The notes below the pieces were generated by a model. It was not told where the DNA came from. It made no database searches and saw only the letters and a list, made by a program, of their open reading frames with translations. Positions 1 through 42,388 of a stretch of DNA of 64,000 nt are shown here, one piece after another. The DNA is from Escherichia phage ph0021: sequence record OP557970.1. One strand, given 5' to 3'. Made by a program: the position numbers and the translations under genes. How positions within the stretch are numbered: position 1 is the stretch's first letter; each line of letters opens with the position of its first letter.

Positions 1-1
1 T

Positions 2-310
2 GATAGAGTAGCTAAATTAACTCCAACCGGTGAAATTGAGTATGATTCAGTAACAGGCGAAGCAATTTATGAACCTGGCCCAATGGCTGGTGTAAAATAT
101 CCTCTTCCTGATGACTATAATGCTGAAAATAATAATTCAATATTTCAAGGTCAATTGCCATCTGAACGACGTAAATTAATGAGTCCTCTATTTGATGCAT
201 CTGGAACAACATTTGCACAATTTAGGGATTTAGTTAATAAACGTCTAAAAGATAATATAGGAAATCCAAGAGACCCTGAAAATCCAACACAGGTTAAAAT
301 AGATGAATGA
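2..310 (+). CDS. 7: baseplate wedge protein gp7, C-terminal fragment (5' end lies upstream of the window)
   Basis: Frame is open from window position 2 with no stop; sits directly upstream of gp8 in T4 order 7-8-9-10. Confidence 0.6.
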   Translation, partial: DRVAKLTPTGEIEYDSVTGEAIYEPGPMAGVKYPLPDDYNAENNNSIFQGQLPSERRKLMSPLFDASGTTFAQFRDLVNKRLKDNIGNPRDPENPTQVKIDE

Positions 311-1307
311 TTCAAGTGTTATCTATCGTGCGATAGTTACTTCAAAATTTAGAACAGAAAAAATGTTGAATTTTTATAATTCAATTGGAAGTGGTCCGGA
401 TAAAAACACTATCTTTATTACATTTGGAAGATCAGAACCATGGTCATCAAACGAAAATGAGGTGGGATTTGCCCCACCTTATCCCACCGATTCTGTGTTA
501 GGTGTAACTGACATGTGGACGCATATGATGGGAACAGTAAAGGTTCTTCCATCAATGCTTGATGCAGTTATTCCTCGTCGAGATTGGGGAGATACTAGAT
601 ATCCGGATCCGTATACATTTAGAATTAACGATATTGTAGTGTGTAACTCAGCTCCTTACAACGCTACTGAATCAGGCGCAGGCTGGTTAGTATATCGTTG
701 TTTAGATGTTCCTGATACCGGAATGTGTTCAATCGCATCTTTAACTGATAAGGATGAATGCCTTAAATTAGGCGGAAAATGGACACCTTCTGTTAGGTCA
801 ATGACTCCTCCTGAAGGTCGAGGAGATGCTGAAGGAACAATTGAACCTGGGGACGGGTATGTATGGGAATATCTTTTTGAGATTCCACCCGATGTATCTA
901 TAAATAGATGCACGAATGAATATATCGTGGTTCCTTGGCCTGAGGAATTAAAAGAAGACCCGACTAGATGGGGATATGAAGATAATCTCACTTGGCAGCA
1001 AGATGATTTTGGATTAATTTACCGGGTTAAGGCAAATACTATCCGTTTTAAAGCATATTTAGATTCAGTTTACTTTCCTGATGCTGCATTGCCAGGAAAT
1101 AAAGGATTTAGACAAATATCAATAATTACGAATCCTCTTGAAGCTAAAGCTCATCCAAATGACCCAAACGTTAAAGCTGAAAAGGATTATTATGATCCAG
1201 AAGATTTAATGAGGCATTCGGGCGAAATGATTTATATGGAAAATAGGCCACCTATTATCATGGCAATGGATCAAACAGAAGAAATCAATATTCTGTTTAC
1301 ATTTTAA
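303..1307 (+). CDS. 8: baseplate wedge protein gp8
   Basis: 334-aa ORF; length and position match T4 gp8; followed by a terminator hairpin. Confidence 0.85.
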   Translation: MNDSSVIYRAIVTSKFRTEKMLNFYNSIGSGPDKNTIFITFGRSEPWSSNENEVGFAPPYPTDSVLGVTDMWTHMMGTVKVLPSMLDAVIPRRDWGDTRYPDPYTFRINDIVVCNSAPYNATESGAGWLVYRCLDVPDTGMCSIASLTDKDECLKLGGKWTPSVRSMTPPEGRGDAEGTIEPGDGYVWEYLFEIPPDVSINRCTNEYIVVPWPEELKEDPTRWGYEDNLTWQQDDFGLIYRVKANTIRFKAYLDSVYFPDAALPGNKGFRQISIITNPLEAKAHPNDPNVKAEKDYYDPEDLMRHSGEMIYMENRPPIIMAMDQTEEINILFTF

Positions 1308-1312
1308 ATTAA

Positions 1313-1336
1313 GGGAGCCCATGGGCTCCCTTTTTC
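1313..1336 (+). terminator. intrinsic terminator after gene 8
   Basis: Perfect palindrome GGGAGCCCA/TGGGCTCCC followed by TTTTT. Confidence 0.7.
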
Positions 1337-1338
1337 TT

Positions 1339-1346
1339 TATAAATA
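1339..1346 (+). promoter_or_regulatory. late promoter (TATAAATA) for gene 9
   Basis: Exact TATAAATA about 25 bp upstream of the gp9 ATG. Confidence 0.7.
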
Positions 1347-1370
1347 CTATAAACTCATAAGGAAACCGCT

Positions 1371-2237
1371 ATGTTCATTCAAGAACCAAAGAAATTGATT
1401 GATACCGGCGAAATTGGTAACGCTTCTACTGGTGATATCTTATTCGACGGTGGTAATAAAATTAATAGTGATTTTAACGCAATTTATAATGCGTTTGGCG
1501 ATCAGCGTAAAATGGCAGTAGCAAATGGCACTGGAGCAGATGGTCAAATTATCCATGCTACTGGGTATTATCAAAAACACTCTATTACAGAGTACGCAAC
1601 TCCAGTGAAAGTTGGCACTAGACATGATATTGATACCTCTACTGTAGGTGTTAAAGTTATTATTGAAAGAGGCGAACTCGGCGATTGTGTTGAATTCATT
1701 AACTCTAATGGATCAATATCAGTTACTAATCCTTTAACAATTCAAGCTATTGATTCAATTAAAGGTGTTTCAGGTAATTTAGTAGTAACTAGCCCATATA
1801 GTAAAGTAACTTTACGCTGTATTTCATCTGATAATTCTACATCGGTTTGGAATTATTCTATTGAAAGTATGTTTGGACAAAAGGAATCACCAGCTGAAGG
1901 TACATGGAATATTTCTACATCCGGATCAGTTGATATTCCACTATTTCATCGCACTGAATACAATATGGCTAAATTGTTAGTTACGTGCCAATCGGTAGAT
2001 GGAAGAAAAATTAAAACGGCAGAAATAAATATTCTTGTAGATGCTGTTAATTCAGAAGTCATTTCTTCTGAATATGCTGTCATGCGGGTTGGAAATGAAA
2101 CAGAAGAAGACGAAATCGCTAATATTGCATTTAGTATTAAAGAAAATTATGTAACGGCAACTATAAGTTCTTCAACTGTCGGTATGAGAGCAGCAGTTAA
2201 AGTTATCGCTACGCAGAAAATCGGGGTGGCTCAATAA
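1371..2237 (+). CDS. 9: baseplate wedge / long tail fiber attachment protein gp9
   Basis: 288-aa ORF starting MFIQEPKKLIDTGEIGNASTGDILFDGGNK, recognised as T4 gp9; late promoter upstream. Confidence 0.92.
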   Translation: MFIQEPKKLIDTGEIGNASTGDILFDGGNKINSDFNAIYNAFGDQRKMAVANGTGADGQIIHATGYYQKHSITEYATPVKVGTRHDIDTSTVGVKVIIERGELGDCVEFINSNGSISVTNPLTIQAIDSIKGVSGNLVVTSPYSKVTLRCISSDNSTSVWNYSIESMFGQKESPAEGTWNISTSGSVDIPLFHRTEYNMAKLLVTCQSVDGRKIKTAEINILVDAVNSEVISSEYAVMRVGNETEEDEIANIAFSIKENYVTATISSSTVGMRAAVKVIATQKIGVAQ

Positions 2238-4042
2238 TGAAACAAAATATTAATATCGGTAATGTTGTAGATGATGGTACCGGTGACTACCTGCGTAAAG
2301 GTGGTATAAAAATAAATGAAAACTTTGATGAGCTTTATTATGAACTTGGTGACGGTGATGTTCCATATTCAGCTGGTGCCTGGAAAACTTATAATGCTTC
2401 ATCAGGACAAACACTAACAGCAGAATGGGGAAAATCATACGCTATTAATACTTCGTCTGGAAGAGTAACACTGCAACTTCCTAAAGGAACTGTTAATGAT
2501 TATAATAAAGTAATTAGAGCTAGGGATGTATTTGCAACATGGAATGTTAATCCAGTTACTTTAGTAGCCGCTTCTGGTGATACTATCAAAGGATCATCGT
2601 CATCGGTTGAAATTAACGTTCAATTTAGTGATTTAGAGCTAGTTTATTGCGCTCCGGGCCGTTGGGAATATGTCAAAAATAAACAAATTGACAAAATTAT
2701 TAGTTCAGACATTAGCAATGTAGCTCGTAAAGAATTTTTAGTCGAAGTTCAAGGACAAACAGACTTTTTAGATATTTTCCGTGGAACTAGTTATAATGTT
2801 AATAACATCCGAGTAAAACATCGTGGTAACGAATTGTATTACGGTGATGTATTTAGCGAAAACAGTGACTTTGGCTCTCCGGGCGAAAATGAAGGCGAAT
2901 TAGTTCCTCTTGATGGATTTAATATTCGATTAAGACAGCCTTGTAATATTGGTGACACCGTTCAAATTGAAACATTTATGGATGGTGTATCGCAATGGAG
3001 AAGTTCATATACAAGACGCCAAATAAAAGTACTGGATTCAAAACTAACATCAAAGACTTCTTTAGAAGGAAGCATTTATGTTACTGATTTATCGGCGATG
3101 AAATCAATTCCATTTTCTGCATTTGGATTAATTCCTGGTGAACCCATTAATCCTAACTCTCTTGAGGTTCGTTTTAATGGAATTTTACAGCAGCAGGCTG
3201 GAACAGCTGGATATCCTCTGTTTTTGTGTGAAGGCGCTAATTCAGATACGCAAGAAGGATGTATATCTCTTGGCGGCGAATGGAAAGAATCAAACACCGA
3301 TTATTCTATAGAATATGAAGACGGAAAACCTATCAGTCTTTTATTTGATAGAAAATTTGAATCCGGTGACATTATCGTTATAACATGGTTCAATAATGAT
3401 TTAGGAACTCTTTTAGAAAAAGATGACATTATTGAATTAACGGATGACCGTTATGTTAGCAAAGGATCATCTACCGAAGTTACTGGTGATGTAGCCTTAA
3501 CGGATTTTGATAAAATCGGTTGGCCAAATGTTGAAAAAGTTGATTCTTATACTAGAACGTATAATTCAATATCATCTATTTTCGATAGCATTTATCCTGT
3601 AGGTTCAATTTATGAAAATGCTATAAATCCAAATAATCCGGCGACTTATATGGGATTTGGTTCATGGAAATTATTTGGTAAAGGACAGGTTTTAGTAGGA
3701 TGGAATGATGATGTTACGGATCCAAACTTTGCTTTAAACAATAATGATTTAGATTCTAGCGGAAATCCTTCACATACTGCCGGTGGAACAGTTGGAACAA
3801 CAACAGTGACACTTGAGAATGCAAATCTTCCTGCAACTAAAACCGACGAAAGAGTTTTAATTGAAGACGAAAACGGATCAGTTATTATTGGAGGTTGCCA
3901 ATATGACCCAGATGAAACTGGTCCTATATATACAAAATATCGTGAAGACTACGCAACAACAAACTCTTCACATACTCCTCCTGCTAATATTAGTAATATT
4001 CAACCGTCTATTACTGTATACCGTTGGATAAGGATTGCATAA
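2237..4042 (+). CDS. 10: baseplate wedge protein gp10
   Basis: 601-aa ORF, length and position match T4 gp10 (602 aa); start overlaps gp9 stop. Confidence 0.9.
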
Positions 4043-4701
4043 TGAGTTTACTTAATAATAAAGCGGGAGTTATTTCCCGCTTAGCAGATTTTCTTGGTTT
4101 TAGAACTAAGAAAAATGATATTTCGGTTATGAATAATCAGCCAGTAGGCGCTGTAACAATTTCACAAATAGCAAAAGGTTTTTATGACCCAAATGTAGAA
4201 TCTGCTATCAATGATGTTAGAAATATGGCAGAGCAACAGGTTGGAGCTGTATTAGTTAATATAAGCGGCGTATCTCCTACTGGCGTGCAACAAACAGACT
4301 ATTGGTCATTTGAAGGAACCGTTACTGATACTTCAGCCAAACCAGGTGATCCAGTTATTGTTAACATGTTTGGTATTCCAGTTAAAGCTACTAATGGAAT
4401 GACTTCAATTGAATTTACTAGTGCTGTTAGAACAGCTCTACAGGAAATGGTTGTAAAATTTATTGCAATTGATTCATTTGAAGACCATCCTACTATAGGG
4501 AATAAAATACAAGTTAAGTATTTAGATAACCAAGAACATATCTTAGAGCAATACTCCGATAAAGGAATTACTTTCAAACAAGAAATAATTTCTCCTTCTA
4601 AACCCGGGTATGGAACTTGGCAATTATTAGGTGCGCAAACTGTTACGCTAGATAGTCACACACAACCTACAGTATTTTATTATTTTGAGAGAATAGCATG
4701 A
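4042..4701 (+). CDS. 11: baseplate wedge protein gp11 (short tail fiber attachment)
   Basis: 219 aa from the MSLLNNKAG start; TAATG overlap with gp10 stop; ORF track shows a longer in-frame upstream start at 4024. Confidence 0.88.
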
Positions 4702-6248
4702 GTAACAATACATATCAGCACGTATCAAATGAATCAAAATATGTTAAATTCGATCCCACTGGATCGAATTTTCCTGGCACTGTTACGACAGTACAGTCTG
4801 CATTATCAAAAATAAGTAATATCGGCGTAAATGGTATTCCTGATGCAACTATGGAAGTTAAAGGAATAGCAATGATTGCATCAGAGCAAGAGGTTTTAGA
4901 TGGAACAAATAATTCTAAAATCGTTACACCAGCTACATTAGCAACAAGATTATTGTATCCAAATGCTACTGAAACTAAATATGGTTTAACGCGCTATTCA
5001 ACAAATGAAGAAACATTAGAAGGCTCAGATAATAATTCATCAATAACGCCGCAAAAACTGAAATACCATACTGATGATGTGTTCCAAAATAGATATTCGT
5101 CTGAGTCATCAAACGGGGTTATTAAAATATCATCTACGCCTGCGGCTTTGGCTGGTGTTGATGATACTACGGCGATGACTCCGCTAAAAACCCAAAAACT
5201 CGCAATAAAATTAATTTCACAAATAGCTCCTTCCGAAGATACTGCATCAGAATCTGTGAGAGGTGTGGTTCAATTATCAACTGTTGCGCAAACTCGTCAA
5301 GGAACTCTCCGCGAAGGATATGCAATTTCTCCGTATACCTTTATGAATTCTGTTGCAACACAAGAATATAAGGGTGTTATACGTTTAGGAACACAATCGG
5401 AAATTAACAGTAATTTAGGAGATGTTGCAGTAACAGGTGAAACACTAAATGGTCGAGGAGCTACTGGTTCTATGCGTGGAGTAGTTAAATTAACGACGCA
5501 AGCCGGTATTGCCCCTGAAGGTGATAGTTCTGGAGCATTAGCGTGGAACGCAGATGTAATTAATACGCGTGGTGGACAAACTATTAATGGTTCTTTAAAT
5601 TTAGACCATCTTACAGCAAATGGAATTTGGTCACGCGGTGGAATGTGGAAAAATGGCGATCAACCTGTTGCCACTGAAAGATATGCGTCCGAACGAGTTC
5701 CGGTTGGAACTATTATGATGTTTGCGGGTGATTCAGCACCTCCAGGTTGGATTATGTGTCATGGTGGAACCGTGTCAGGTGACCAATTTCCTGATTATAG
5801 AAACGTAGTTGGAACAAGATTTGGTGGCGATTGGAATAATCCTGGCGTTCCTGATATGCGGGGTCTTTTCGTCAGAGGAGCTGGCACAGGCGGTCATATT
5901 TTAAATCAACGAGGACAAGATGGTTATGGAAAGGATAGACTTGGCGTAGGATGTGACGGAATGCATGTTGGTGGTGTTCAAGCACAACAAATGTCATACC
6001 ATAAACACGCCGGTGGTTGGGGGGAATATAACAGAAGTGAAGGCCCATTTGGCGCGTCTGTTTATCAAGGATATCTTGGAACTAGAAAATATGCCGACTG
6101 GGATAATGCTTCATACTTCACTAATGATGGATTTGAATTAGGCGGACCGAGAGATGCCCTTGGTACACTTAATCGTGAAGGATTAATTGGTTATGAAACT
6201 AGACCATGGAATATATCATTAAACTATATTATTAAAGTTCATTACTAA
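4698..6248 (+). CDS. 12: short tail fiber protein gp12
   Basis: 516-aa ORF starting [13 protein letters not shown], Gly/Thr/Ser-rich fibre sequence; position after gp11. Confidence 0.9.
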
Positions 6249-6257
6249 GGATTACAA

Positions 6258-7715
6258 ATGATTGAATTAAAAGATTTACCTTTTGTTGATAGCGTTCCTG
6301 ATGAAGGTCAGGAACGTATTTCATGGATTAAAAATGGTGAAGAAATACTAGGAGCTAGCACTAAGTATGGAAACGATGGATCAATGAATAGACCAATTGT
6401 TTCCGTGTTTAAAAATGTTGAGGTTCTTGACGAAAATATAGGAATTCTTAAAACTGCCATTGAAACATCGCAGAAAGATATTAAAACAATTCAAGGAGTT
6501 TTAGATGTATCAGGAGATATAGAAGCACTATCGCAGATCAGTGTTAATAAAAATGACATATCAAATTTAAAGACACTTACTAATGAACACACTGATATAT
6601 TAACTGGAACTAATAATACAGTTGACAAAATTATTGCTGATATAGGTCCATTTAATGATGAAGAAAACTCTGTTTATAGAACAATTAGAAATGATTTATT
6701 GTGGATTAAACAAGAACTAGGGCAATATTCTGGCCAAGACATTAACGGTCTTCCTGTTGTTGGTAATGCTAGCACAGGAATGAAACATAGAATAATAACA
6801 AATAGTACATTATTATCTTCACAAGGCATTCGTTTAAGTGAATTAGAAAATAAATTTACTGAATCTGACGTAGGATCATTGACGGTTGAAGTTGGTAAAT
6901 TACGCGATGAACTTGGTAATAAACCAGTAGATTTTGGACCAAATATTTATAATAGATTAAACACTATAGATGATAAACAAACTTTAATAAATTCTGATAT
7001 AGCAGAAATTAAATCTTCTATTGGATACCCAGAAAATGTTTCTATAATAACAGAAATTAATAATAACAAAAGTAGCATTGAATCTATTAATAATGAATTA
7101 AATCAGAGTGAAGGTGTTAAACAGCGCTTAACGGCTATTGAAACTTCTATAGGTTCAGATGATATTCCTTCTAGTATTAAAGGAAAAATTAAAAATCACA
7201 CAACTTCTATTGAGTCTTTAAACGGAATTGTTGGTGAAAACACTTCGTCTGGTTTAAGAGCGAATGTTTCGTGGTTAAATCAAATTGTTGGAACTGACTC
7301 CAGCGGAGGACAACCGTCTCCTTCTGGATCTCTATTAAATAAAGTTTCAGTGCTTGAAGGAGAAGTTTCAGTTTTAAACAATAATGTTCAAAATATACAA
7401 GTTGAAATAGGAAATAATAGAACAGGAATTAAAGGTCAAGTTATTGAACTTACTTCACTTATAAATGGAAATAATCCTGACGGATCAACTGTTGAAGAAC
7501 GAGGATTAACTAATTCTATAAAAACGAATGAAACTAACATTGCGGCAGTCACGCATGAAGTAAATACAGCTAAAGACAATATATCCTCTTTACAGAGCAG
7601 CGTTCAAGCTCTACAAGAAGCGGGTTATATTCCTGAAGCTCCAAAAGATGGCCAAGCTTACGTTCGTAAAGACGGCGAATGGGTACTACTTTCTACCTTT
7701 TTATCACCAGCATAA
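6258..7715 (+). CDS. wac: fibritin (whisker/neck fibre) Wac
   Basis: 485-aa ORF with long heptad-like coiled-coil repeats and C-terminal [27 protein letters not shown] foldon-type motif. Confidence 0.92.
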
Positions 7716-34092: not shown

Positions 34093-35187
34093 ATGGCAAT
34101 TGTTAAAGAAATAACTGCTGATTTAATTAAAAAGTCCGGTGAAACAATTTCAGCCGGACAGAGTACTAAATCAGAAGTAGGAACTAAAACATACACAGCC
34201 CAGTTTCCAACTGGGCGTGCTAGTGGTAATGACACTACAGGGGACTTCCAGGTAACAGATCTATATAAGAATGGATTATTATTTACTGCATACAATATGT
34301 CATCTAGGGATTCTGGAAGTCTTAGAACGATGAGATCTAACTACTCTTCTTCATCTTCGAGTATTTTACGTACAGCCAGAAACACTATCAGTAATACAGT
34401 ATCAAAACTATCAAATGGACTAATATCAGATAATAATTCAGGAACAATAAGTAAAGTTCCTGTTGCAAATATTCTTTTACCTAGATCTAAATCTGACGTC
34501 GATACGTCATCACATAGATTTAATGATGTTCAAGATAGTCTTATTACAAAAGGTGGAGGTACTGCTACTGGTGTGCTAAGCAATATGGCTTCAACCGCAG
34601 TATTTGGAGCGCTGGAAAGTATAACACAAGGTATAATGGCTGATAATAATGAACAGATTTATACGACAGCCAGAAGCATGTACGGCGGTGCTGAAAATAG
34701 AACTAAAGTGTTCACTTGGGATTTGACTCCGCGCTCAACAGAAGATTTAATGGCTATTATTAATATCTATCAGTATTTTAACTATTTTTCTTACGGTGAA
34801 ACTGGTAAATCTCAATATGCTGCTGAAATAAAAGGATATCTAGATGAGTGGTACCGTTCTACTTTTATTGAGCCGTTAACTCCAGAAGATGCAGTTAAAA
34901 ATAAGACGTTATTTGAGAAAATGACATCGAGTTTAACTAACGTTCTTGTAGTTTCAAACCCGACAATTTGGATGGTGAAAAACTTTGGTGCAACATCTAA
35001 GTTTGATGGAAAAACGGAAATATTCGGTCCATGTCAAATCCAGAGTATCAGATTTGATAAAACACCTAATGGTAACTTTAACGGATTAGCTATTGCTCCA
35101 AATCTCCCTAGTACATTTACTCTCGAGATTACTATGAGAGAAATTATCACGTTAAACCGTGCTTCTTTATATGCGGGGACTTTTTAA
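34093..35187 (+). CDS. 48: baseplate tail tube cap gp48
   Basis: 364-aa ORF, T4 gp48 length. Confidence 0.88.
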   Translation: MAIVKEITADLIKKSGETISAGQSTKSEVGTKTYTAQFPTGRASGNDTTGDFQVTDLYKNGLLFTAYNMSSRDSGSLRTMRSNYSSSSSSILRTARNTISNTVSKLSNGLISDNNSGTISKVPVANILLPRSKSDVDTSSHRFNDVQDSLITKGGGTATGVLSNMASTAVFGALESITQGIMADNNEQIYTTARSMYGGAENRTKVFTWDLTPRSTEDLMAIINIYQYFNYFSYGETGKSQYAAEIKGYLDEWYRSTFIEPLTPEDAVKNKTLFEKMTSSLTNVLVVSNPTIWMVKNFGATSKFDGKTEIFGPCQIQSIRFDKTPNGNFNGLAIAPNLPSTFTLEITMREIITLNRASLYAGTF

Positions 35188-36152
35188 TGTATTCTTTAGA
35201 GGAATTTAATAATCAAGCAATAAACGCAGATTTCCAACGTAATAATATGTTTAGCTGCGTTTTTGCAACAACTCCATCAACTAAAAGCTCTTCGTTGATA
35301 AGTTCAATTAGCAACTTTTCTTATAATAACTTGGGCCTAAATTCAGATTGGTTAGGATTAACTCAAGGCGATATTAATCAGGGAATTACTACGCTAATTA
35401 CAGCTGGCACACAAAAACTGATAAGAAAATCAGGGGTTAGTAAATATCTTATTGGTGCCATGAGTCAACGTACAGTTCAAAGTTTATTAGGCTCATTTAC
35501 AGTTGGTACATATTTAATTGACTTCTTTAACGTGGCATATAACTCATCTGGATTGATGATATACTCTGTAAAAATGCCAGAGAATAGATTATCCTATGAA
35601 ACTGACTGGAACTATAATTCTCCTAATATTCGTATAACTGGGAGAGAATTAGACCCTTTGGTTATTTCATTCAGAATGGATTCAGAAGCTTGTAACTATC
35701 GTGCAATGCAAGACTGGGTTAACGCTGTTCAAGACCCAGTAACTGGATTGCGTGCTTTGCCGCAAGATGTCGAGGCAGATATTCAGGTTAATCTTCATTC
35801 TCGCAATGGATTACCACATACTGCGGTGATGTTCACTGGATGCATTCCAGTGTCCGTAAGCGCTCCTGAGTTATCATATGATGGAGATAACCAAATAACT
35901 ACATTTGATGTTACTTTTGCGTATAGAGTGATGCAGGCTGGAGCAGTTGATAGACAAGCTGCCCTTGAATGGCTTGAATCTGCTACTATAAATGGTATTC
36001 AAAGCGTTCTCGGAAATAGTGGAGGTGTTACTGGACTATCTAATTCGCTTTCACGACTTAGTAGATTAGGGGGAACTGCAGGAAGCATTTCAAATATTAA
36101 TACTATGACAGGAATTGTCAATTCGCAGAGTAAAATATTAGGAGCAATATAA
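35187..36152 (+). CDS. 54: baseplate tail tube initiator gp54
   Basis: 321-aa ORF, T4 gp54 length; followed by a bidirectional terminator. Confidence 0.88.
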   Translation: MYSLEEFNNQAINADFQRNNMFSCVFATTPSTKSSSLISSISNFSYNNLGLNSDWLGLTQGDINQGITTLITAGTQKLIRKSGVSKYLIGAMSQRTVQSLLGSFTVGTYLIDFFNVAYNSSGLMIYSVKMPENRLSYETDWNYNSPNIRITGRELDPLVISFRMDSEACNYRAMQDWVNAVQDPVTGLRALPQDVEADIQVNLHSRNGLPHTAVMFTGCIPVSVSAPELSYDGDNQITTFDVTFAYRVMQAGAVDRQAALEWLESATINGIQSVLGNSGGVTGLSNSLSRLSRLGGTAGSISNINTMTGIVNSQSKILGAI

Positions 36153-36156
36153 CAAT

Positions 36157-36174
36157 GGGGACCGAAAGGTCCCC
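36157..36174. terminator. bidirectional terminator between convergent gene 54 and the alt-region transcript
   Basis: GGGGACC-GAAA-GGTCCCC hairpin flanked by T-rich sequence. Confidence 0.65.
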
Positions 36175-36180
36175 ATATTT

Positions 36181-36471
36181 TTATTTACGGAATGAAATGA
36201 AAGCAGAAACTGAAGCAACTAAACTGTCTTCAATATAAACTTCAATTTTTACCGGAGCTTCTGACTCAAATTTACCTGTTACTACACCTTGGAAAATACT
36301 TTCAGTCTGTTCTGGCTTTGAAAAATTTTCAGAAGGAAAAATTCCGAACTTTTTATCTGTTCCAAAAATTTTGATAAATTCATCGTAAACTGCTTCATTA
36401 AAAGCATTATCAGCAGGAATAACTCCTTCAACTACAAGTTCTTGACCTAAAAAGCGCAAAGAAGATTTCAT
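36181..36471 (-). CDS. hypothetical protein downstream of the alt genes
   Basis: 96-aa ORF with its own early promoter (GTTTAC-N17-TTATAGT) and ribosome-binding site. Confidence 0.6.
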   Translation of the reverse strand: MKSSLRFLGQELVVEGVIPADNAFNEAVYDEFIKIFGTDKKFGIFPSENFSKPEQTESIFQGVVTGKFESEAPVKIEVYIEDSLVASVSAFISFRK

Positions 36472-36502: not shown

Positions 36503-36532
36503 ACTATAACACAACACGAGGGACTTGTAAAC
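36503..36532 (-). promoter_or_regulatory. early promoter (GTTTAC-N17-TTATAGT)
   Basis: Minus-strand -35 GTTTAC and -10 TATAGT upstream of the 96-aa ORF; near-identical to the alc promoter. Confidence 0.6.
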
Positions 36533-38589
36533 TACATTTTGAACTTTTTAGACATTCCGTTGATGTTAACCAAAGAAGTCAAGATTTGAGAAACTTCATT
36601 TTCCTCTTCTTTTGATTCTTCTACAAGGAATTGATTAAATCCAGCCATTGGACGAACTTCACCAGTTTCCATTAGATGGTCTCCATCATATACTGATTCT
36701 TCTAATTGTTCAGAAGGAGGAACGATTGTACCTTCGATTAGATACTTGTTATAAGCAGTTTCTTTCATAAAGTACGTACTTACTTTATTAATCTTCAGTA
36801 AAATTCCACGTGGTAGAATAACTTCAGCTTCTGACGGAAATCCTGATAAATGACCTGGAACGATAACTTTGATTCGCTCAGCTCCTTTAATTACCATACC
36901 CACGCTAGTTTCTGCATCTTCATTAGCATATGTAGAATGACTACCCATATGCATCAAATCTTCTGCATCAACGGAACCTTCTCCTTCACCAGAAAATACT
37001 GCGCCGGAATCATCTAGAGCCATATAGTTTTTACCATGCTCACCGAAGATATTTGGTTTAAGCGATGTGGATACGAAGTTCTTGAAATAGAACATTTTAT
37101 TTTCAATGTTATGACGCAAAGTTTTAAAGGTAACTTCTTGCCCACGGTAAAGTGTAGTTCCTGGAGGAAGAACTGATCCTTTGGCAAAGGCAGAATCTAA
37201 CGTCTCGATGTGCTTAATAGCTCGTTCCATGTATTCTTCACGGGTAGAATCTGGTTTACCCAAAAGGAACGAGTTCATTTCAACATATGAATCTGCACAA
37301 TAATCTTCAATTACATCAGATTCAGCCTGAGTCAGTCCTTTTGGAGCTACTTCGGTGCTTGCGTATTCATATGCCTGGGCAGCAGATTCATTAATCAATT
37401 TATAAATGCCATTCATGACAAATTGAATAATAGCTGTCTTTTCATCTGGTGTGGTTTTAGAACCTTTAACTAAATCATTAATAATTTTCTTAATAACATC
37501 AAAGCTATTAGAAATATTAATGTCAGCAAGATCGCTTAAAATTTTATCAGTTTTATAATCAAAGAATTCTTTATTCTTTAAATATTCTTGAGAACCTTGA
37601 TATGTTATATCGCTCTGCAACTTGATAGATGGATCACGTAAACGTGCATGGGCTAATGCAATATGATTTCGGAAACTTTCTAGTTCATAATCGTTAGATT
37701 TAAAACGAAAAGCACTTCTCATACCACCGATAGCTCCTTTGCTGAAGTTTGAACCAATCTGAATAACGCCAGAGTTCATTGGTCCTTCTGCTTTATATAC
37801 CGGAACTTTAGATTCAAATTCTTGATATTTCTTAGCAGCGAAGCTATCACCCTGAAGTGAAGCATCAACAGTAGAATATTGAGCTTGTGCTGCTAATCGA
37901 CGACTAATTTTAGTTTTCTGAATAACAGCTTGATCCGTGCGCTTATCATTTTCTAAAGCAATAGAAGCAGCAACAGCAACAGCTTTAGGAACAGCATTAC
38001 CTGTTTTAACGTCTACATAAACATCACCAACCTTTGATTCAACTTTTGTGAATAACTCGGTTGAAATAGGAGGTACACCTGGAATGTCTTCTAAATTGGC
38101 ATTTTTACGGTAAACCATAATATATGCGTACTTTTTATCATAATCCCAGATTTCCTTTAAAAGAACATATCGACCTGCTCCTTTAGTACGTACTAAACGG
38201 TCAGCAATAACTTGCATTTGACGAGCTGCGCCATTTGTTTTACTTTTTAGTACGCGGAATAGGCATGCATCAATTTTATACTGCTTCATTGTTTGAAGAG
38301 CAGTATCAAAAACAGCATTAATGACGCCAATTGGATTTCCACCCAAGTTTTTAAGCTTAACTAATGATAGTTTCTCATTAACACCTATCATTACGATATG
38401 CATCATTTTGTCGCCTGGCTTAACGTTTTTATTCGTATCACCGCCAGAGGTGTATGTACAAAATCTAAATCCAGGAAGCACGCTTTCTTCACCTGCTTGA
38501 ATAGCAAAAATTTGAGGTATTTTATGCTTAGGATTTAAGTTAACAACCGGCGCCGAAGCGCCGTCAAATAATTCTGTAATAAGTTCCAT
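36532..38589 (-). CDS. Alt-like ADP-ribosyltransferase paralog (second copy)
   Basis: 685-aa ORF; N-terminus MELITELFD... parallels Alt; retains candidate R-S-E class motifs (LYRGQ, FVSTSL, SEAEVILPRG). Confidence 0.8.
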   Translation of the reverse strand: MELITELFDGASAPVVNLNPKHKIPQIFAIQAGEESVLPGFRFCTYTSGGDTNKNVKPGDKMMHIVMIGVNEKLSLVKLKNLGGNPIGVINAVFDTALQTMKQYKIDACLFRVLKSKTNGAARQMQVIADRLVRTKGAGRYVLLKEIWDYDKKYAYIMVYRKNANLEDIPGVPPISTELFTKVESKVGDVYVDVKTGNAVPKAVAVAASIALENDKRTDQAVIQKTKISRRLAAQAQYSTVDASLQGDSFAAKKYQEFESKVPVYKAEGPMNSGVIQIGSNFSKGAIGGMRSAFRFKSNDYELESFRNHIALAHARLRDPSIKLQSDITYQGSQEYLKNKEFFDYKTDKILSDLADINISNSFDVIKKIINDLVKGSKTTPDEKTAIIQFVMNGIYKLINESAAQAYEYASTEVAPKGLTQAESDVIEDYCADSYVEMNSFLLGKPDSTREEYMERAIKHIETLDSAFAKGSVLPPGTTLYRGQEVTFKTLRHNIENKMFYFKNFVSTSLKPNIFGEHGKNYMALDDSGAVFSGEGEGSVDAEDLMHMGSHSTYANEDAETSVGMVIKGAERIKVIVPGHLSGFPSEAEVILPRGILLKINKVSTYFMKETAYNKYLIEGTIVPPSEQLEESVYDGDHLMETGEVRPMAGFNQFLVEESKEEENEVSQILTSLVNINGMSKKFKM

Positions 38590-38592
38590 GAT

Positions 38593-40686
38593 TTATCCTT
38601 GAACGAACTTGTAAGGCATGTTTGTAATATCTATGCAAGACGCAATAATTCCAAGAGATGATTCTACTTTCTGTTTAATATTTGATGAAACAAATGATGC
38701 AAAGTCAACTCTGTCTTCTATTTCAATATCACCTGTCATTGCAACCAATTCACCAGTTTCCATTAAATGGTCTCCATCATAGATTACCGATTCGGTGAGC
38801 TCTTCCGTGGTCATAACTTCAGCTTGAATGAGTTTTGTATTATTAGATGTTGTTCCGTCATTATTAGAAGCATCGGTTATTTTATTAACTTTGACCATCA
38901 ATCCACGCGGTAGAATAACTTCAGCTTCTGTTGCTATTCCGAGACTTCCTGGATATACAACATTAACTTTATGAGCTCCATCAATTGCCCATCCTATTTG
39001 AACTTTAACATATTCAGGATTTTCTTTATACGCTCTTATTTCGTTTGGATTAATAGTTATTCCTTCTTCATTTTTATCAACTGTTAATTCATTGCGAGCT
39101 TCTGGTTCTAAAAGACCAATACCAGCATGTGTGATTCCAAAACGTCCAAAAATGATAGGAGTTAAAGAAGTAGATACAAAATTTCTGAAGTAGAACACTT
39201 TATTTTTAACTAACGCTTCATATATAGGAGCAGTCATACTTTGAGCACGATAAACTGTAATGCCTTCTGGTATACGGTCACCATTTTCAAAAGCTGAATC
39301 TAAGTTATTTATAGCAGATTCAATTTCTTTTTCACTCATTACATCGTATCGTTCTGGATTGTAACGACCTAAAAGAAGATTATTGATGTCAGTATATCCT
39401 GAACCGCAATATTCTCTAATGCCACGCTTTTGTGATGGAGTATATTTAGAACCATCGCGGGCAATAGTAATATCAATCATTGGACCAGCACCAATTCCAG
39501 AAAAACTGTAAATCATTCGTTTGAGGAATTTAGTTTTTGCTGCGTTCCAGGAATTTTTAGTTATTTCTTCCCAGACTTCATCTGGTTGTCCTTTACGATT
39601 TTTATTATGATTAGCAAGCCATTTATCTTTATAATCTTCAAAGAATTGATTTACAGCTGCTGCGTATTTCTCTAAACATTTTATTGAAGTAGTTGGTTCA
39701 TTTTTAATTGCATTAAAAATTACTTCTTTAATTTTTTCTGAAACTTCACCGACTTGACTCATTGGAAAGAATTTATAATCATAGTGAAGTTCATCTGCCG
39801 TTCCTTCAGCAATAATTTTTGCTGCCTTTGTTTTAGAAGCTAATGAATTAATTCCAATTTTCATTTCTTCTGCTTCGGGAATTAAAGGTGCAGTAGCTGG
39901 TTTATTAAAATTGGCTGCTGTAGATTCATACTTCTGGAATAATTCACTTTCAAATCTAGAAGATTCCAATGACTGACTTTGTGCAATTGCTCTACGGGAA
40001 ATTTTAACTTTAACGATTACAGCTTGGTCAGAACGTTTATCATTTTCTTGTGCAATAGATGCTGCAATTGCTTCATTTTTAGTTACTTGAGCTCCAGTAT
40101 CTTTATTGATATAAACATCACCGACCTTCGATTCAACTTTAGTAAAGAGTTCAGTGCTAATTTCTGGAACTCCTGGAATGTCTTCTAATGATACATTTTT
40201 GCGATGTATAAGAATATATGCATACTTTTTATCGTAATCCCAGAGTTCCTTAAGAAGGACGTATCTGCCACCTGAACGACTACGGATAAGTCTATCAGCA
40301 ATAACTTGAATTTGTCGAGCTTGGCCAGCAGTTTTAGACTTAAGAATACGAAGCATGCAGGCATCAATTTTATATTGACGCATCGTTTGCATTGCAACAG
40401 TAAAAACTGAATTGATATAATTAATTGGGCTTGGACCAAGACCTTTTAATTTAGCAATTGAGCCTTTAGCAGTTAATGTAAAAGGAACAATATGCATCAT
40501 TTTATCGCCCATCTTTAAATCGCGATTAGTATCACCTCCAGATGTATAGGTACATAAACGAAAGCCTGGTTGTTCAATTGCATCATCAACATGAACTGAA
40601 AAAATTTGTGGTATTTTCTTCTTTGGATTTAAGTTTGTAATCGGAAGAGTAGTATCTTCGTCAAATAATTCTGTAATAAGTTCCAT
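38593..40686 (-). CDS. alt: Alt, head-packaged mono-ADP-ribosyltransferase
   Basis: 697-aa ORF starting MELITELFDEDTTLPITNLNPKKKIPQIF; motifs VYRAQ, FVSTSL, TEAEVILPRG; late promoter upstream. Confidence 0.9.
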   Translation of the reverse strand: MELITELFDEDTTLPITNLNPKKKIPQIFSVHVDDAIEQPGFRLCTYTSGGDTNRDLKMGDKMMHIVPFTLTAKGSIAKLKGLGPSPINYINSVFTVAMQTMRQYKIDACMLRILKSKTAGQARQIQVIADRLIRSRSGGRYVLLKELWDYDKKYAYILIHRKNVSLEDIPGVPEISTELFTKVESKVGDVYINKDTGAQVTKNEAIAASIAQENDKRSDQAVIVKVKISRRAIAQSQSLESSRFESELFQKYESTAANFNKPATAPLIPEAEEMKIGINSLASKTKAAKIIAEGTADELHYDYKFFPMSQVGEVSEKIKEVIFNAIKNEPTTSIKCLEKYAAAVNQFFEDYKDKWLANHNKNRKGQPDEVWEEITKNSWNAAKTKFLKRMIYSFSGIGAGPMIDITIARDGSKYTPSQKRGIREYCGSGYTDINNLLLGRYNPERYDVMSEKEIESAINNLDSAFENGDRIPEGITVYRAQSMTAPIYEALVKNKVFYFRNFVSTSLTPIIFGRFGITHAGIGLLEPEARNELTVDKNEEGITINPNEIRAYKENPEYVKVQIGWAIDGAHKVNVVYPGSLGIATEAEVILPRGLMVKVNKITDASNNDGTTSNNTKLIQAEVMTTEELTESVIYDGDHLMETGELVAMTGDIEIEDRVDFASFVSSNIKQKVESSLGIIASCIDITNMPYKFVQG

Positions 40687-40709
40687 GTTATCCTCTCTAG
40701 TGTTTATTC

Positions 40710-40740
40710 TATTTATAAAATTAAAGGCCCGAAGGCCTTT
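40710..40740 (-). promoter_or_regulatory. terminator hairpin plus late promoter upstream of alt
   Basis: AAAGGCC-CGAA-GGCCTTT hairpin (40723-40740), then minus-strand TATAAATA (40710-40717) and GAGAGG ribosome-binding site before the alt ATG. Confidence 0.6.
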
Positions 40741-40742
40741 AA

Positions 40743-40928
40743 TTAATAGAGAGCTAAAAGAGTACGATATACTTCAAACTTTGGACCTTTTTCATATGGA
40801 TCAAATCTTTCCGTGAATTCATCATATGCTAGTTTATCTGGGAATTCAAGAATAACCTGCGATACCGCAGTGGAAACATCTCCACCTTCTTTTTGAGCCA
40901 CGACAATTGTTTCTAAGTAAGCTTTCAT
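40743..40928 (-). CDS. hypothetical protein between gene 30 and alt
   Basis: 61-aa ORF; its start overlaps the ligase stop. Confidence 0.5.
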   Translation of the reverse strand: MKAYLETIVVAQKEGGDVSTAVSQVILEFPDKLAYDEFTERFDPYEKGPKFEVYRTLLALY

Positions 40929-42388
40929 AAACCAGTTACCTCATGAAAATCGCCAAATACATCTTCGAACGTATTAGCTTTAGTTTTATCTTCACGTAAA
41001 CGAATTGCAATTGGAAGAAATAGCTTAACGTAATCAGTACGTCCATCTAATTTTACCCAGCCGTTGCATTCGCACTCTAGAATTTTTCCAATATAATAAT
41101 TTTGGTTTTCCATAATGCGAGTACGATCAAGTTCATGCGATTTTATACCGGCTTTATCTTTTAAGCCTGAACCAGCATTTACTTTAATTTTTCCACACTC
41201 TGATTCAAGAATGAAACCACCTGCTTTAGTAGGGTCTTTACGGTGAGGATAAATTCCTACAATTTTTAAATCAACATCAATTACTTCTTTAAATTTATAA
41301 AGATTTTTTGAACGAGCATTTTCCCATAATCCATCGATATTTTTAAGAATAATACCTTCAAGACCTTGGTCAATATACTTTTTATAAATTACCTTAGCTT
41401 CATCTAGGTTATTTACTACTTGGTTTTCAATTAAAATTACTTTATCATAGCCTGATGTCATTTGTTCTAGTTTAGAAAAACGTACATCATATTTTAAACG
41501 AAATGCTGGAAGACCATATATTTCTACTAATGGAACATAGTCCCAGACCTGAAACTTCATGCATTGTGCTTCTTTTTCAGAAATGGTTCCCTTTAAAGAT
41601 TTATTAGCGATTCCATTAGAAGTAGTACGTGATTCAGCTACTTCGGCGAATTCTTTAGCTTTACTAATTTCAGGATAAGCATCAAAAAGAAAATCTAGGC
41701 CTTCTGGTTCCTTTTTAACTTGCTCATGGTATACCAATTCGCCATCAATTAACACACCTTCTGGATGAATCTGGCGAGCTTCTGCAGTCATTTTGATTAA
41801 CTCTTCCTTGAGAAGATCTAATCCTAGATATTCATTACCAGCTCGTGATAAAAGACGAACATCATCTAATTCATCACCTCTGACTTCAGCAAAACAGCGA
41901 GCTCCATCAGCTTTTAGCTGTGCAAAGGCTGGAAATTTGATATTCTTATTAATGCCTTTTTCGTCATAAGAACTTGCTAGCATTTGAGGTTGTTCAGGAA
42001 TTAAACCTGGCCAAACTTTGTTTGCAATAGATACTGATGCACCGCATTCAAGGTCTCGCATCATCACCCGACGCAAAACTTCAACATCATCTTTTTTACC
42101 GTCAGTAATATATCCAGTTAATTCCTCAATTGCCGCATTTCCAGTCAATTTCCGAGTAGCTAACGTGAATTCAATGAAGTCAAGCATATCGGTAAGAGTC
42201 AACATTCCAAAACTCTGGGTAGTAATACCCGGTTTAGGCCATTTCTTGATATAATACTGTAACCCACGAGAATAAGTCAGACGATATACTCGTTTAAGCA
42301 ATTCATTATCTTTATTCTTTTCAAGAATTGCTTGCTTCTGCTTAGTTGAACCAATAGATGCTATTTCGTTCAGAATTTTAAGAATCAT
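40925..42388 (-). CDS. 30: ATP-dependent DNA ligase gp30
   Basis: 487-aa ORF starting MILKILNEIASIGSTKQKQAILEKNKDNELLKRVYRLTY; adenylation motif KADGARC. Confidence 0.95.
   Translation of the reverse strand: MILKILNEIASIGSTKQKQAILEKNKDNELLKRVYRLTYSRGLQYYIKKWPKPGITTQSFGMLTLTDMLDFIEFTLATRKLTGNAAIEELTGYITDGKKDDVEVLRRVMMRDLECGASVSIANKVWPGLIPEQPQMLASSYDEKGINKNIKFPAFAQLKADGARCFAEVRGDELDDVRLLSRAGNEYLGLDLLKEELIKMTAEARQIHPEGVLIDGELVYHEQVKKEPEGLDFLFDAYPEISKAKEFAEVAESRTTSNGIANKSLKGTISEKEAQCMKFQVWDYVPLVEIYGLPAFRLKYDVRFSKLEQMTSGYDKVILIENQVVNNLDEAKVIYKKYIDQGLEGIILKNIDGLWENARSKNLYKFKEVIDVDLKIVGIYPHRKDPTKAGGFILESECGKIKVNAGSGLKDKAGIKSHELDRTRIMENQNYYIGKILECECNGWVKLDGRTDYVKLFLPIAIRLREDKTKANTFEDVFGDFHEVTGL

Follow-up and report, generated by a model that had tools for sequence, protein, structure and literature searches.

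The 64,000-nucleotide stretch of Escherichia phage ph0021 analysed here (sequence record OP557970.1; hereafter the window) carries two tandem genes, altA and altB, whose products are both intact and, judged from sequence and structural models, probably active Alt-family ADP-ribosyltransferases. Our overall reading, which we put at a probability of roughly 75%, is that a late operon gives rise to two capsid-packaged, gp21-processed and injected arginine-specific mono-ADP-ribosyltransferases that share a packaging module and probably have different host targets. The initial annotation had described two adjacent minus-strand open reading frames (ORFs) of 697 and 685 amino acids that both start MELITELFD, and had interpreted them as two intact ADP-ribosyltransferases. 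The ORF listing agrees with the description, and the interpretation is supported, the second ORF of the window having neither a missing catalytic residue nor a frameshift, whereas its T4 counterpart has both. The two genes are as follows.

38593-40686, minus strand: altA, the T4 alt ortholog, 697 amino acids, 77.9 kDa (ORF listing)
36532-38589, minus strand: altB ('Alt2'), 685 amino acids, 76.0 kDa (ORF listing)

Both proteins match Pfam PF03496 (ADPrib_exo_Tox; C3/VIP2/Alt type) well above its curated cut-off of 23.4 bits (AltA, 129.9 bits, 9.6e-38; AltB, 72.3 bits, 4.2e-20). The candidate Arg, Ser-Thr-Ser and Glu-x-Glu motifs that had been proposed for both copies are present as YRAQ (479) in AltA and YRGQ (481) in AltB, followed in each by FVSTSL and EAEVILPRG. 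Specifically, the catalytic residues are R480, S505/S507 and E587/E589 in AltA, and R482, S507/S509 and E587/E589 in AltB. An alignment of 23 family members, drawn from the window pair, T4 Alt, Dhakavirus KIT01 (two of its three alt paralogs) and database homologs, shows these motif residues to be invariant, the conserved set in AltB numbering being R482, S507, S509, E587 and E589 together with E6 and E631. In a PDB sequence search, the YR and ExE of AltA align with CdtA and iota toxin, with ExE opposite the E-Y-E of CdtA, and the ADP-ribosyltransferase (ART) fold of AltB is predicted with good confidence in an AlphaFold model. The Glu-x-Glu form of the ADP-ribosylating toxin turn-turn (ARTT) loop is the one associated with arginine-specific enzymes such as Vis and iota toxin; because both copies have this form of the motif, we read AltA and AltB as arginine-specific.

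Selection on the coding sequence points the same way for AltB. Computed against T2, T6 and AugustSocin, the ratio of nonsynonymous to synonymous substitution rates (dN/dS) is 0.036-0.054 for AltB, indicating strong purifying selection, and 0.066-0.075 for AltA. Within AltB, the ART domain is the most constrained region (dN/dS 0.011-0.030). Since its catalytic residues are invariant and it is under purifying selection, altB codes for an enzyme and is maintained, which sets it apart from a pseudogene. In T4 Alt, a Glu-x-Glu mutant, E577A in the authors' numbering, is catalytically dead (PMC11404850). The translation of NC_000866 places the T4 Glu-x-Glu at E574 and E576 and has valine at 577, at odds with the published E577A; the mismatch probably reflects the construct or tag used by the authors, which would offset the numbering.

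AltA and AltB align end to end with 41% identity (E = 2e-158), far beyond chance, and the AlphaFold models show the same architecture for both, in which an alpha/beta N-terminal domain is followed by a helical central domain and then the ART domain, both termini being of low confidence (mean predicted local distance difference test score, pLDDT, 74.3 and 74.6). The identity is distributed unevenly. In AltB numbering, it is 67% in the N-terminal domain (residues 7-238), 17% in the central domain (239-410), 34% in the ART domain (411-628) and 44% in the C-terminal tail (629-685), and it is 25% in the segment from Ser-Thr-Ser to Glu-x-Glu. The earlier statement that the copies share the N-terminal two-thirds does not stand, as the likeness is confined to the N-terminal third and the central third has diverged most. 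The domains map as follows.

39970-40668, minus strand: AltA N-terminal alpha/beta domain, residues 7-239; Tevenvirinae_ADPRT module in common with AltB
38800-39969, minus strand: AltA central helical and ART domains, residues 240-629; the allelic segment
37876-38571, minus strand: AltB N-terminal alpha/beta domain, residues 7-238; the first ~116 codons survive in T4
37360-37875, minus strand: AltB central helical domain, residues 239-410; most diverged part, pLDDT 80-92, all helical
36706-37359, minus strand: AltB ART catalytic domain, residues 411-628; Arg-Ser-Glu (R-S-E) class
36535-36696, minus strand: AltB C-terminal tail, residues 632-685; contains the family-invariant YDGD..E.GE motif

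Both proteins are built in the same four parts, namely a 6-residue presumptive propeptide ending I-T-E, an N-terminal domain, a central domain, and an ART domain with a presumptive C-terminal propeptide. The conserved alpha/beta N-terminal domain, which we infer to be the prohead-core packaging module, would dock the Alt proteins into the prohead scaffolding core. The predicted helical central domain, whose sequences are essentially unrelated between AltA and AltB, is in AltB a candidate target-recognition module, and it is followed by a C3/VIP2/Vis-like ART domain carrying the triad and, after L-x-E, by a putatively disordered C-terminal propeptide. The divergence of the central domain and of the loops between Ser-Thr-Ser and Glu-x-Glu suggests that the target preferences of AltA and AltB differ.

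Family-level searches place both proteins in the same group. PHROG 802 matches each over its full length (AltA, 7.6e-273; AltB, 3e-255), and precomputed Pfam annotation gives the PF26846 Tevenvirinae_ADPRT domain on close homologs; NCBIfam has no model for AltA or AltB. When the AltB central domain (residues 239-412; 37354-37875) was run with phmmer exhaustively against 1.84 billion representative proteins, not one match came back, even to its own orthologs. Because AltB orthologs are abundant in another protein database, we take this zero as uninformative and not as a sign of uniqueness; it is probably due to a library gap or a filtering effect.

Both copies retain the processing signals known from T4 Alt. 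The T4 protein resides in the prohead core at ~40 copies and is ejected along with the phage DNA (PMC9026906, PMC2988021), and it has been described as a core component (PMC9026906, PMC11404850). Mass spectrometry showed that gp21 cuts it after ITE-6 and LTE-619, leaving a mature form of 68.2 kDa (PMC5694885). AltA and AltB both have the N-terminal gp21 motif ITE (4-6), and their C-terminal motifs, LTE (630-632) in AltA and LEE (629-631) in AltB, fall in the same aligned column. The glutamates of both motifs are invariant across the family alignment, which speaks to the presence of the motif and not to cleavage. By analogy with T4 Alt, gp21 would cut AltA after E6 and E632 to a mature form of ~70.1 kDa and AltB after E6 and E631 to one of ~69.2 kDa, with the AltB tail (residues 632-685) being a presumptive propeptide removed after L-E-E631. 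In the AltB model, pLDDT is below 50 at residues 1-11 and 629-685, so that the C-terminal low-confidence part begins at the presumed cut site; in the AltA model, confidence is low at residues 1-8 and from 652, which starts ~20 residues past the presumed cut. The conserved L-M-E in YDGDHLMETGE was considered as the C-terminal gp21 site and dropped, as the published T4 site LTE-619 lies upstream (PMC5694885). On the T4 Alt analogy, both proteins would be incorporated in the prohead, trimmed by gp21 at both ends and ejected with the DNA, and the injected AltA and AltB would modify arginines of host proteins ahead of any phage gene expression.

The signals around the two genes are those expected of a late unit. 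A late promoter had been proposed ahead of the first copy, and TATAAATA is indeed found there, at the same offset as in T2, T6, AugustSocin and T4; the window as a whole contains 20 occurrences of TATAAATA, against 9.1 expected. The 3-nt gap described between the copies is likewise present, the AltA TAA (38595-38593) being followed by ATC and then by the AltB ATG at 38589. The elements of the unit are listed below.

40723-40740, minus strand: terminator-like hairpin AAAGGCC-TTCG-GGCCTTT followed by a T-run, just past the alt.1 stop (read from sequence)
40710-40717, minus strand: T4-type late promoter core TATAAATA, 23 nt upstream of the AltA ATG
40691-40697, minus strand: AltA Shine-Dalgarno sequence GAGAGGA, between the promoter and the ATG (read from sequence)
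38596-38600, minus strand: AltB Shine-Dalgarno sequence AAGGA, within the final altA codons
36155-36176, both strands: bidirectional terminator hairpin between alt.-3 and gene 54, the next clear one after altA-altB

In our model, the gp55-type late promoter would drive altA, and altB would be co-transcribed with altA and translationally coupled to it. The 3-nt spacing suggests translational coupling, and this spacing together with the Shine-Dalgarno sequence of altB makes co-transcription and coupling probable. The consensus scan shows no terminator-like site between altA and altB, and the hairpin at 36155-36176 is the probable 3′ end of a late transcript starting at 40717. The upstream hairpin at 40723-40740, which was read directly in the sequence and not returned by the consensus scan, divides the alt late unit from the early/middle unit that precedes it; five of six T4-like genomes have been described as having a conserved terminator ahead of alt (Nolan et al. 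2006, PMC1524935).

Comparison with T4 clarifies the status of both genes. AltA is the positional ortholog of T4 Alt (NP_049811.1), lying between alt.1/gene 30 and alt.-3/gene 54, and is 71% identical to it. The first 246 residues are alike save one (N-terminal domain, 99.6%), the last ~100 are nearly identical, and the two have in common their late promoter, R-S-E motifs and cleavage motifs (ITE-6 and LTE); AltA residues 247-600 differ, being another allele of ~46% identity. AltB shares the whole architecture and the invariant residues with T4 Alt, but is only 41% identical to it overall and 11.5% in the central domain. T4 Alt ADP-ribosylates Arg265 of RNA polymerase alpha and is promiscuous (PMC2988021). 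The activity, targets and packaging of T4 Alt have been demonstrated experimentally, whereas those of AltA and AltB are deduced from sequence.

T4 itself lost AltB. The initial annotation was undecided on whether T4 carries the second copy intact or as fragments; it carries fragments, alt.-1 and alt.-2, which are a decayed AltB, the same gene being broken in T4 and intact in the window. In T4 (NC_000866), alt (682 amino acids) is followed by alt.-1 (61 amino acids) and alt.-2 (67 amino acids), and the record traces the latter two (NP_049810.1, NP_049809.1) to an old duplication of the start of alt. The alt.-1 translation corresponds to AltB residues 1-54, after which the frame shifts by 1 nt near codon 55; that of alt.-2 corresponds to AltB residues 62-116 and then runs out of frame into the final codons of AltB. 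DNA comparison with the window places a 1,699-bp T4 deletion between two 9-bp direct repeats, ACTTTTTAG.

38242-38250, plus strand: upper copy of ACTTTTTAG, one end of the T4 deletion
36543-36551, plus strand: lower copy of ACTTTTTAG, the other end

Furthermore, the PHROG families of alt.-1 and alt.-2 match AltB (2e-40 and 3e-38) far better than AltA. With these matches and the deletion mapped, T4 therefore holds the stump of a full-length AltB and not a partial duplication of alt, the gene having been lost by a frameshift and a microhomology-mediated deletion.

The pair is the common state in Tequatrovirus, and probably the ancestral one; its distribution was counted over 50,697 phage records. 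In 400 of these, the AltB-specific stretch (residues 240-630) is conserved at 95% identity or more; Dhakavirus forms the next tier at ~49%, and the whole two-gene locus is covered to at least 80% at the DNA level in 356 records. The T4-type deletion junction is wholly present in 91 records. T2 and T6 have the same pair of 697 and 685 amino acids, and a 99%-identical protein cluster counts 772 members in public assemblies. The AltB proteins of AugustSocin (QXV76243.1), T2 (YP_010073850.1) and T6 (YP_010067344.1) are direct orthologs of 685 amino acids in the same position, at least 95% identical to that of the window and without substantive difference. Dhakavirus KIT01 (region 1-5356) has three alt paralogs in tandem, 3 nt apart each, of which the third (gene 203) is an AltB ortholog, 45-62% identical in all regions save for 44% in the central domain. 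The alt duplication thus predates the Tequatrovirus/Dhakavirus split.

The two genes differ in their variation. AltA residues 247-600 (38887-39948, minus strand) exist in Tequatrovirus as two alleles, ~46% identical between nearly identical flanks; the window-type allele is found at 95% identity or above in 308 records, including T2, T6 and RB3, and the T4-type allele, at the same threshold, in 159. AltB, unlike AltA, is essentially monomorphic. The AltA pattern looks like cassette exchange, or balancing selection acting on the first enzyme only. The altA of the window is nucleotide-identical to that of AugustSocin and the altB differs at ~86 sites (within 36532-40686), suggesting that a recent recombination event had its breakpoint close to, or at, the altA-altB boundary. 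Across Tevenvirinae, the locus ranges from one hybrid gene up to three genes. In some assemblies, a single hybrid gene lies between alt.1 and alt.-3, with ~55 to 225 residues of the AltA N-terminus joined to an AltB body (examples are 5001-7055 on a Logan SRR24155011 contig and 5001-7061 on a second contig). Such a gene is the expected outcome of unequal recombination or gene conversion acting on the tandem N-terminal domains, although it may instead be an assembly chimera from a mixed sample.

Several observations weigh against our reading of the locus. A PDB sequence search with AltB gave no direct match, and its fold was taken from the model instead. Literature searches found no experimental study, functional or proteomic, of the second copy, with neither virion proteomics nor enzymology on AltB in the searchable literature and no published enzyme-assay data for AltB or for the AltA allele of the window. 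Because T4 Alt alone is promiscuous, distinct targeting is not needed to account for two copies. T4 and ~90 other records do without AltB, which is therefore dispensable at least on laboratory hosts. Co-transcription is deduced solely from there being no terminator or promoter in between, and a second TATAAATA lies inside altA (39306-39313, minus strand), 717 nt upstream of the AltB ATG, that could give altB a separate transcript, a suggestion that our data neither support nor exclude. This internal site is kept in T2, T6 and AugustSocin, and the T4 allele is without it. Its conservation is no proof of promoter function, as it overlaps the codons of a conserved AINNLDSAF motif, and one chance TATAAATA match per 2 kb is not unusual.

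Among the other explanations, the one that deserves most attention is that AltB is a redundant second dose: it would act on whatever AltA acts on (Arg265 of RNA polymerase alpha and the broad Alt target set) and serve only to raise the injected activity. The identical catalytic core motifs, the like architecture and processing motifs, the already broad specificity of T4 Alt (PMC2988021) and the retained viability of T4 and ~90 other records after loss of AltB all agree with it. We nevertheless consider it unlikely: the central domain (17%) and the Ser-Thr-Ser to Glu-x-Glu segment (25%) have diverged between the copies, AltB is kept as a distinct lineage in the 400 records and has its own Dhakavirus ortholog, and a duplicate kept for dosage alone should have been homogenised or lost, whereas AltB persists as a diverged lineage with a dN/dS of 0.04. 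Going beyond a mere difference in targets, a further reading, which we consider less likely than not, is that AltB is an injected effector with a target set distinct from that of Alt, acting for instance on a component of host defence or of translation and not on RNA polymerase alpha.

Very improbable, in our judgement, is a catalytically inactive AltB with a structural role in the prohead core. The paralogs resemble each other most in the packaging-type N-terminal domain, and Alt has been called a core component (PMC9026906, PMC11404850), as such a role would have it; yet every catalytic residue is invariant, the ART domain is the part of AltB under the tightest constraint and its fold is confidently predicted. 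Finally, we reject the notion that altB is a pseudogene in decay, or that a repeated gene was misassembled into a second ORF. It is true that the homologous T4 DNA is a pseudogene and that hybrid AltA::AltB genes occur in some assemblies, but the ORF of the window is full length and without frameshift, its length recurs unchanged in T2, T6 and AugustSocin, and it is under strong purifying selection. In addition, the copies are only ~69% identical at the DNA level even in their most similar stretch, which rules out assembly collapse or artificial duplication.

The intact altA-altB pair is already known, being annotated in hundreds of genomes and noted in print, and carries little weight as a discovery. 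The BASEL phage AugustSocin record labels the two 'Alt' and 'Alt2', and the RefSeq name for both is 'Alt-like RNA polymerase ADP-ribosyltransferase'. Alt paralogs have been listed for RB49, 44RR and T4, with a full-length duplicate in 44RR (Nolan et al. 2006, PMC1524935), and a 2026 paper describes 'two paralogous Alt-like proteins' of 43.29% identity in 6phi13 and SHFML-11 (PMC13600099), giving almost the same reading of the pair as the initial annotation. 44RR ORF187c/188c, RB49 ORF183c and the KIT01 triple array likewise represent tandem alt paralogs downstream of alt. The copy number varies, with three in KIT01, two in the window, one and a stump in T4, and one hybrid in some metagenomic contigs. 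More distantly, Vis, C3 exoenzymes, iota toxin Ia, CDTa, VIP2 and Certhrax have the catalytic fold and the Arg/Ser-Thr-Ser/Glu-x-Glu motifs in common with the Alt copies at 14-25% identity. These R-S-E toxins leave the cell by secretion or rely on B-components or secretion systems for delivery, whereas the Alt copies carry instead a Tevenvirinae-specific N-terminal domain and propeptides that would serve capsid packaging.

The surrounding genes have the arrangement of a T4-like Tequatrovirus segment, the minus-strand order between gene 54 and gene 30 being alt.1, AltA, AltB and alt.-3, a gene order that T4, T2 and T6 share.

40925-42388, minus strand: DNA ligase gene 30, flanking the locus
40743-40928, minus strand: alt.1, 61 amino acids, Pfam PF24647 Phage_blade
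36181-36471, minus strand: alt.-3, 96 amino acids, DUF5498, immediately downstream of AltB
35187-36152, plus strand: gene 54, flanking the locus

The T6 RefSeq record labels alt.1 a 'siderophore-interacting protein', which looks like a propagated misannotation. The 60-nt gap from the AltB stop to alt.-3 contains a strong sigma-70/early-type promoter match (36503-36531, minus strand; TTTACA-17-TATAGT with a TG extension, 10 of 12 positions), so alt.-3 may be expressed early besides being reached by late read-through. T4 mutants with a C-terminally extended Alt.-3 escape the CmdTAC defence system (PMC11618068).

If the targets of AltB are distinct, T4, on which all of Alt biology is based, is a natural AltB-null mutant, and some of the differences in host takeover or defence sensitivity between T4 and T2, T6 or wild Tequatrovirus would trace to the lost AltB. 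The reference phage T4 is atypical at the alt locus, most of its relatives carrying a second, constrained and presumably injected ADP-ribosyltransferase, and extrapolation of T4 Alt biology to therapeutic or environmental T4-like phages should reckon with AltB and with the two AltA alleles.

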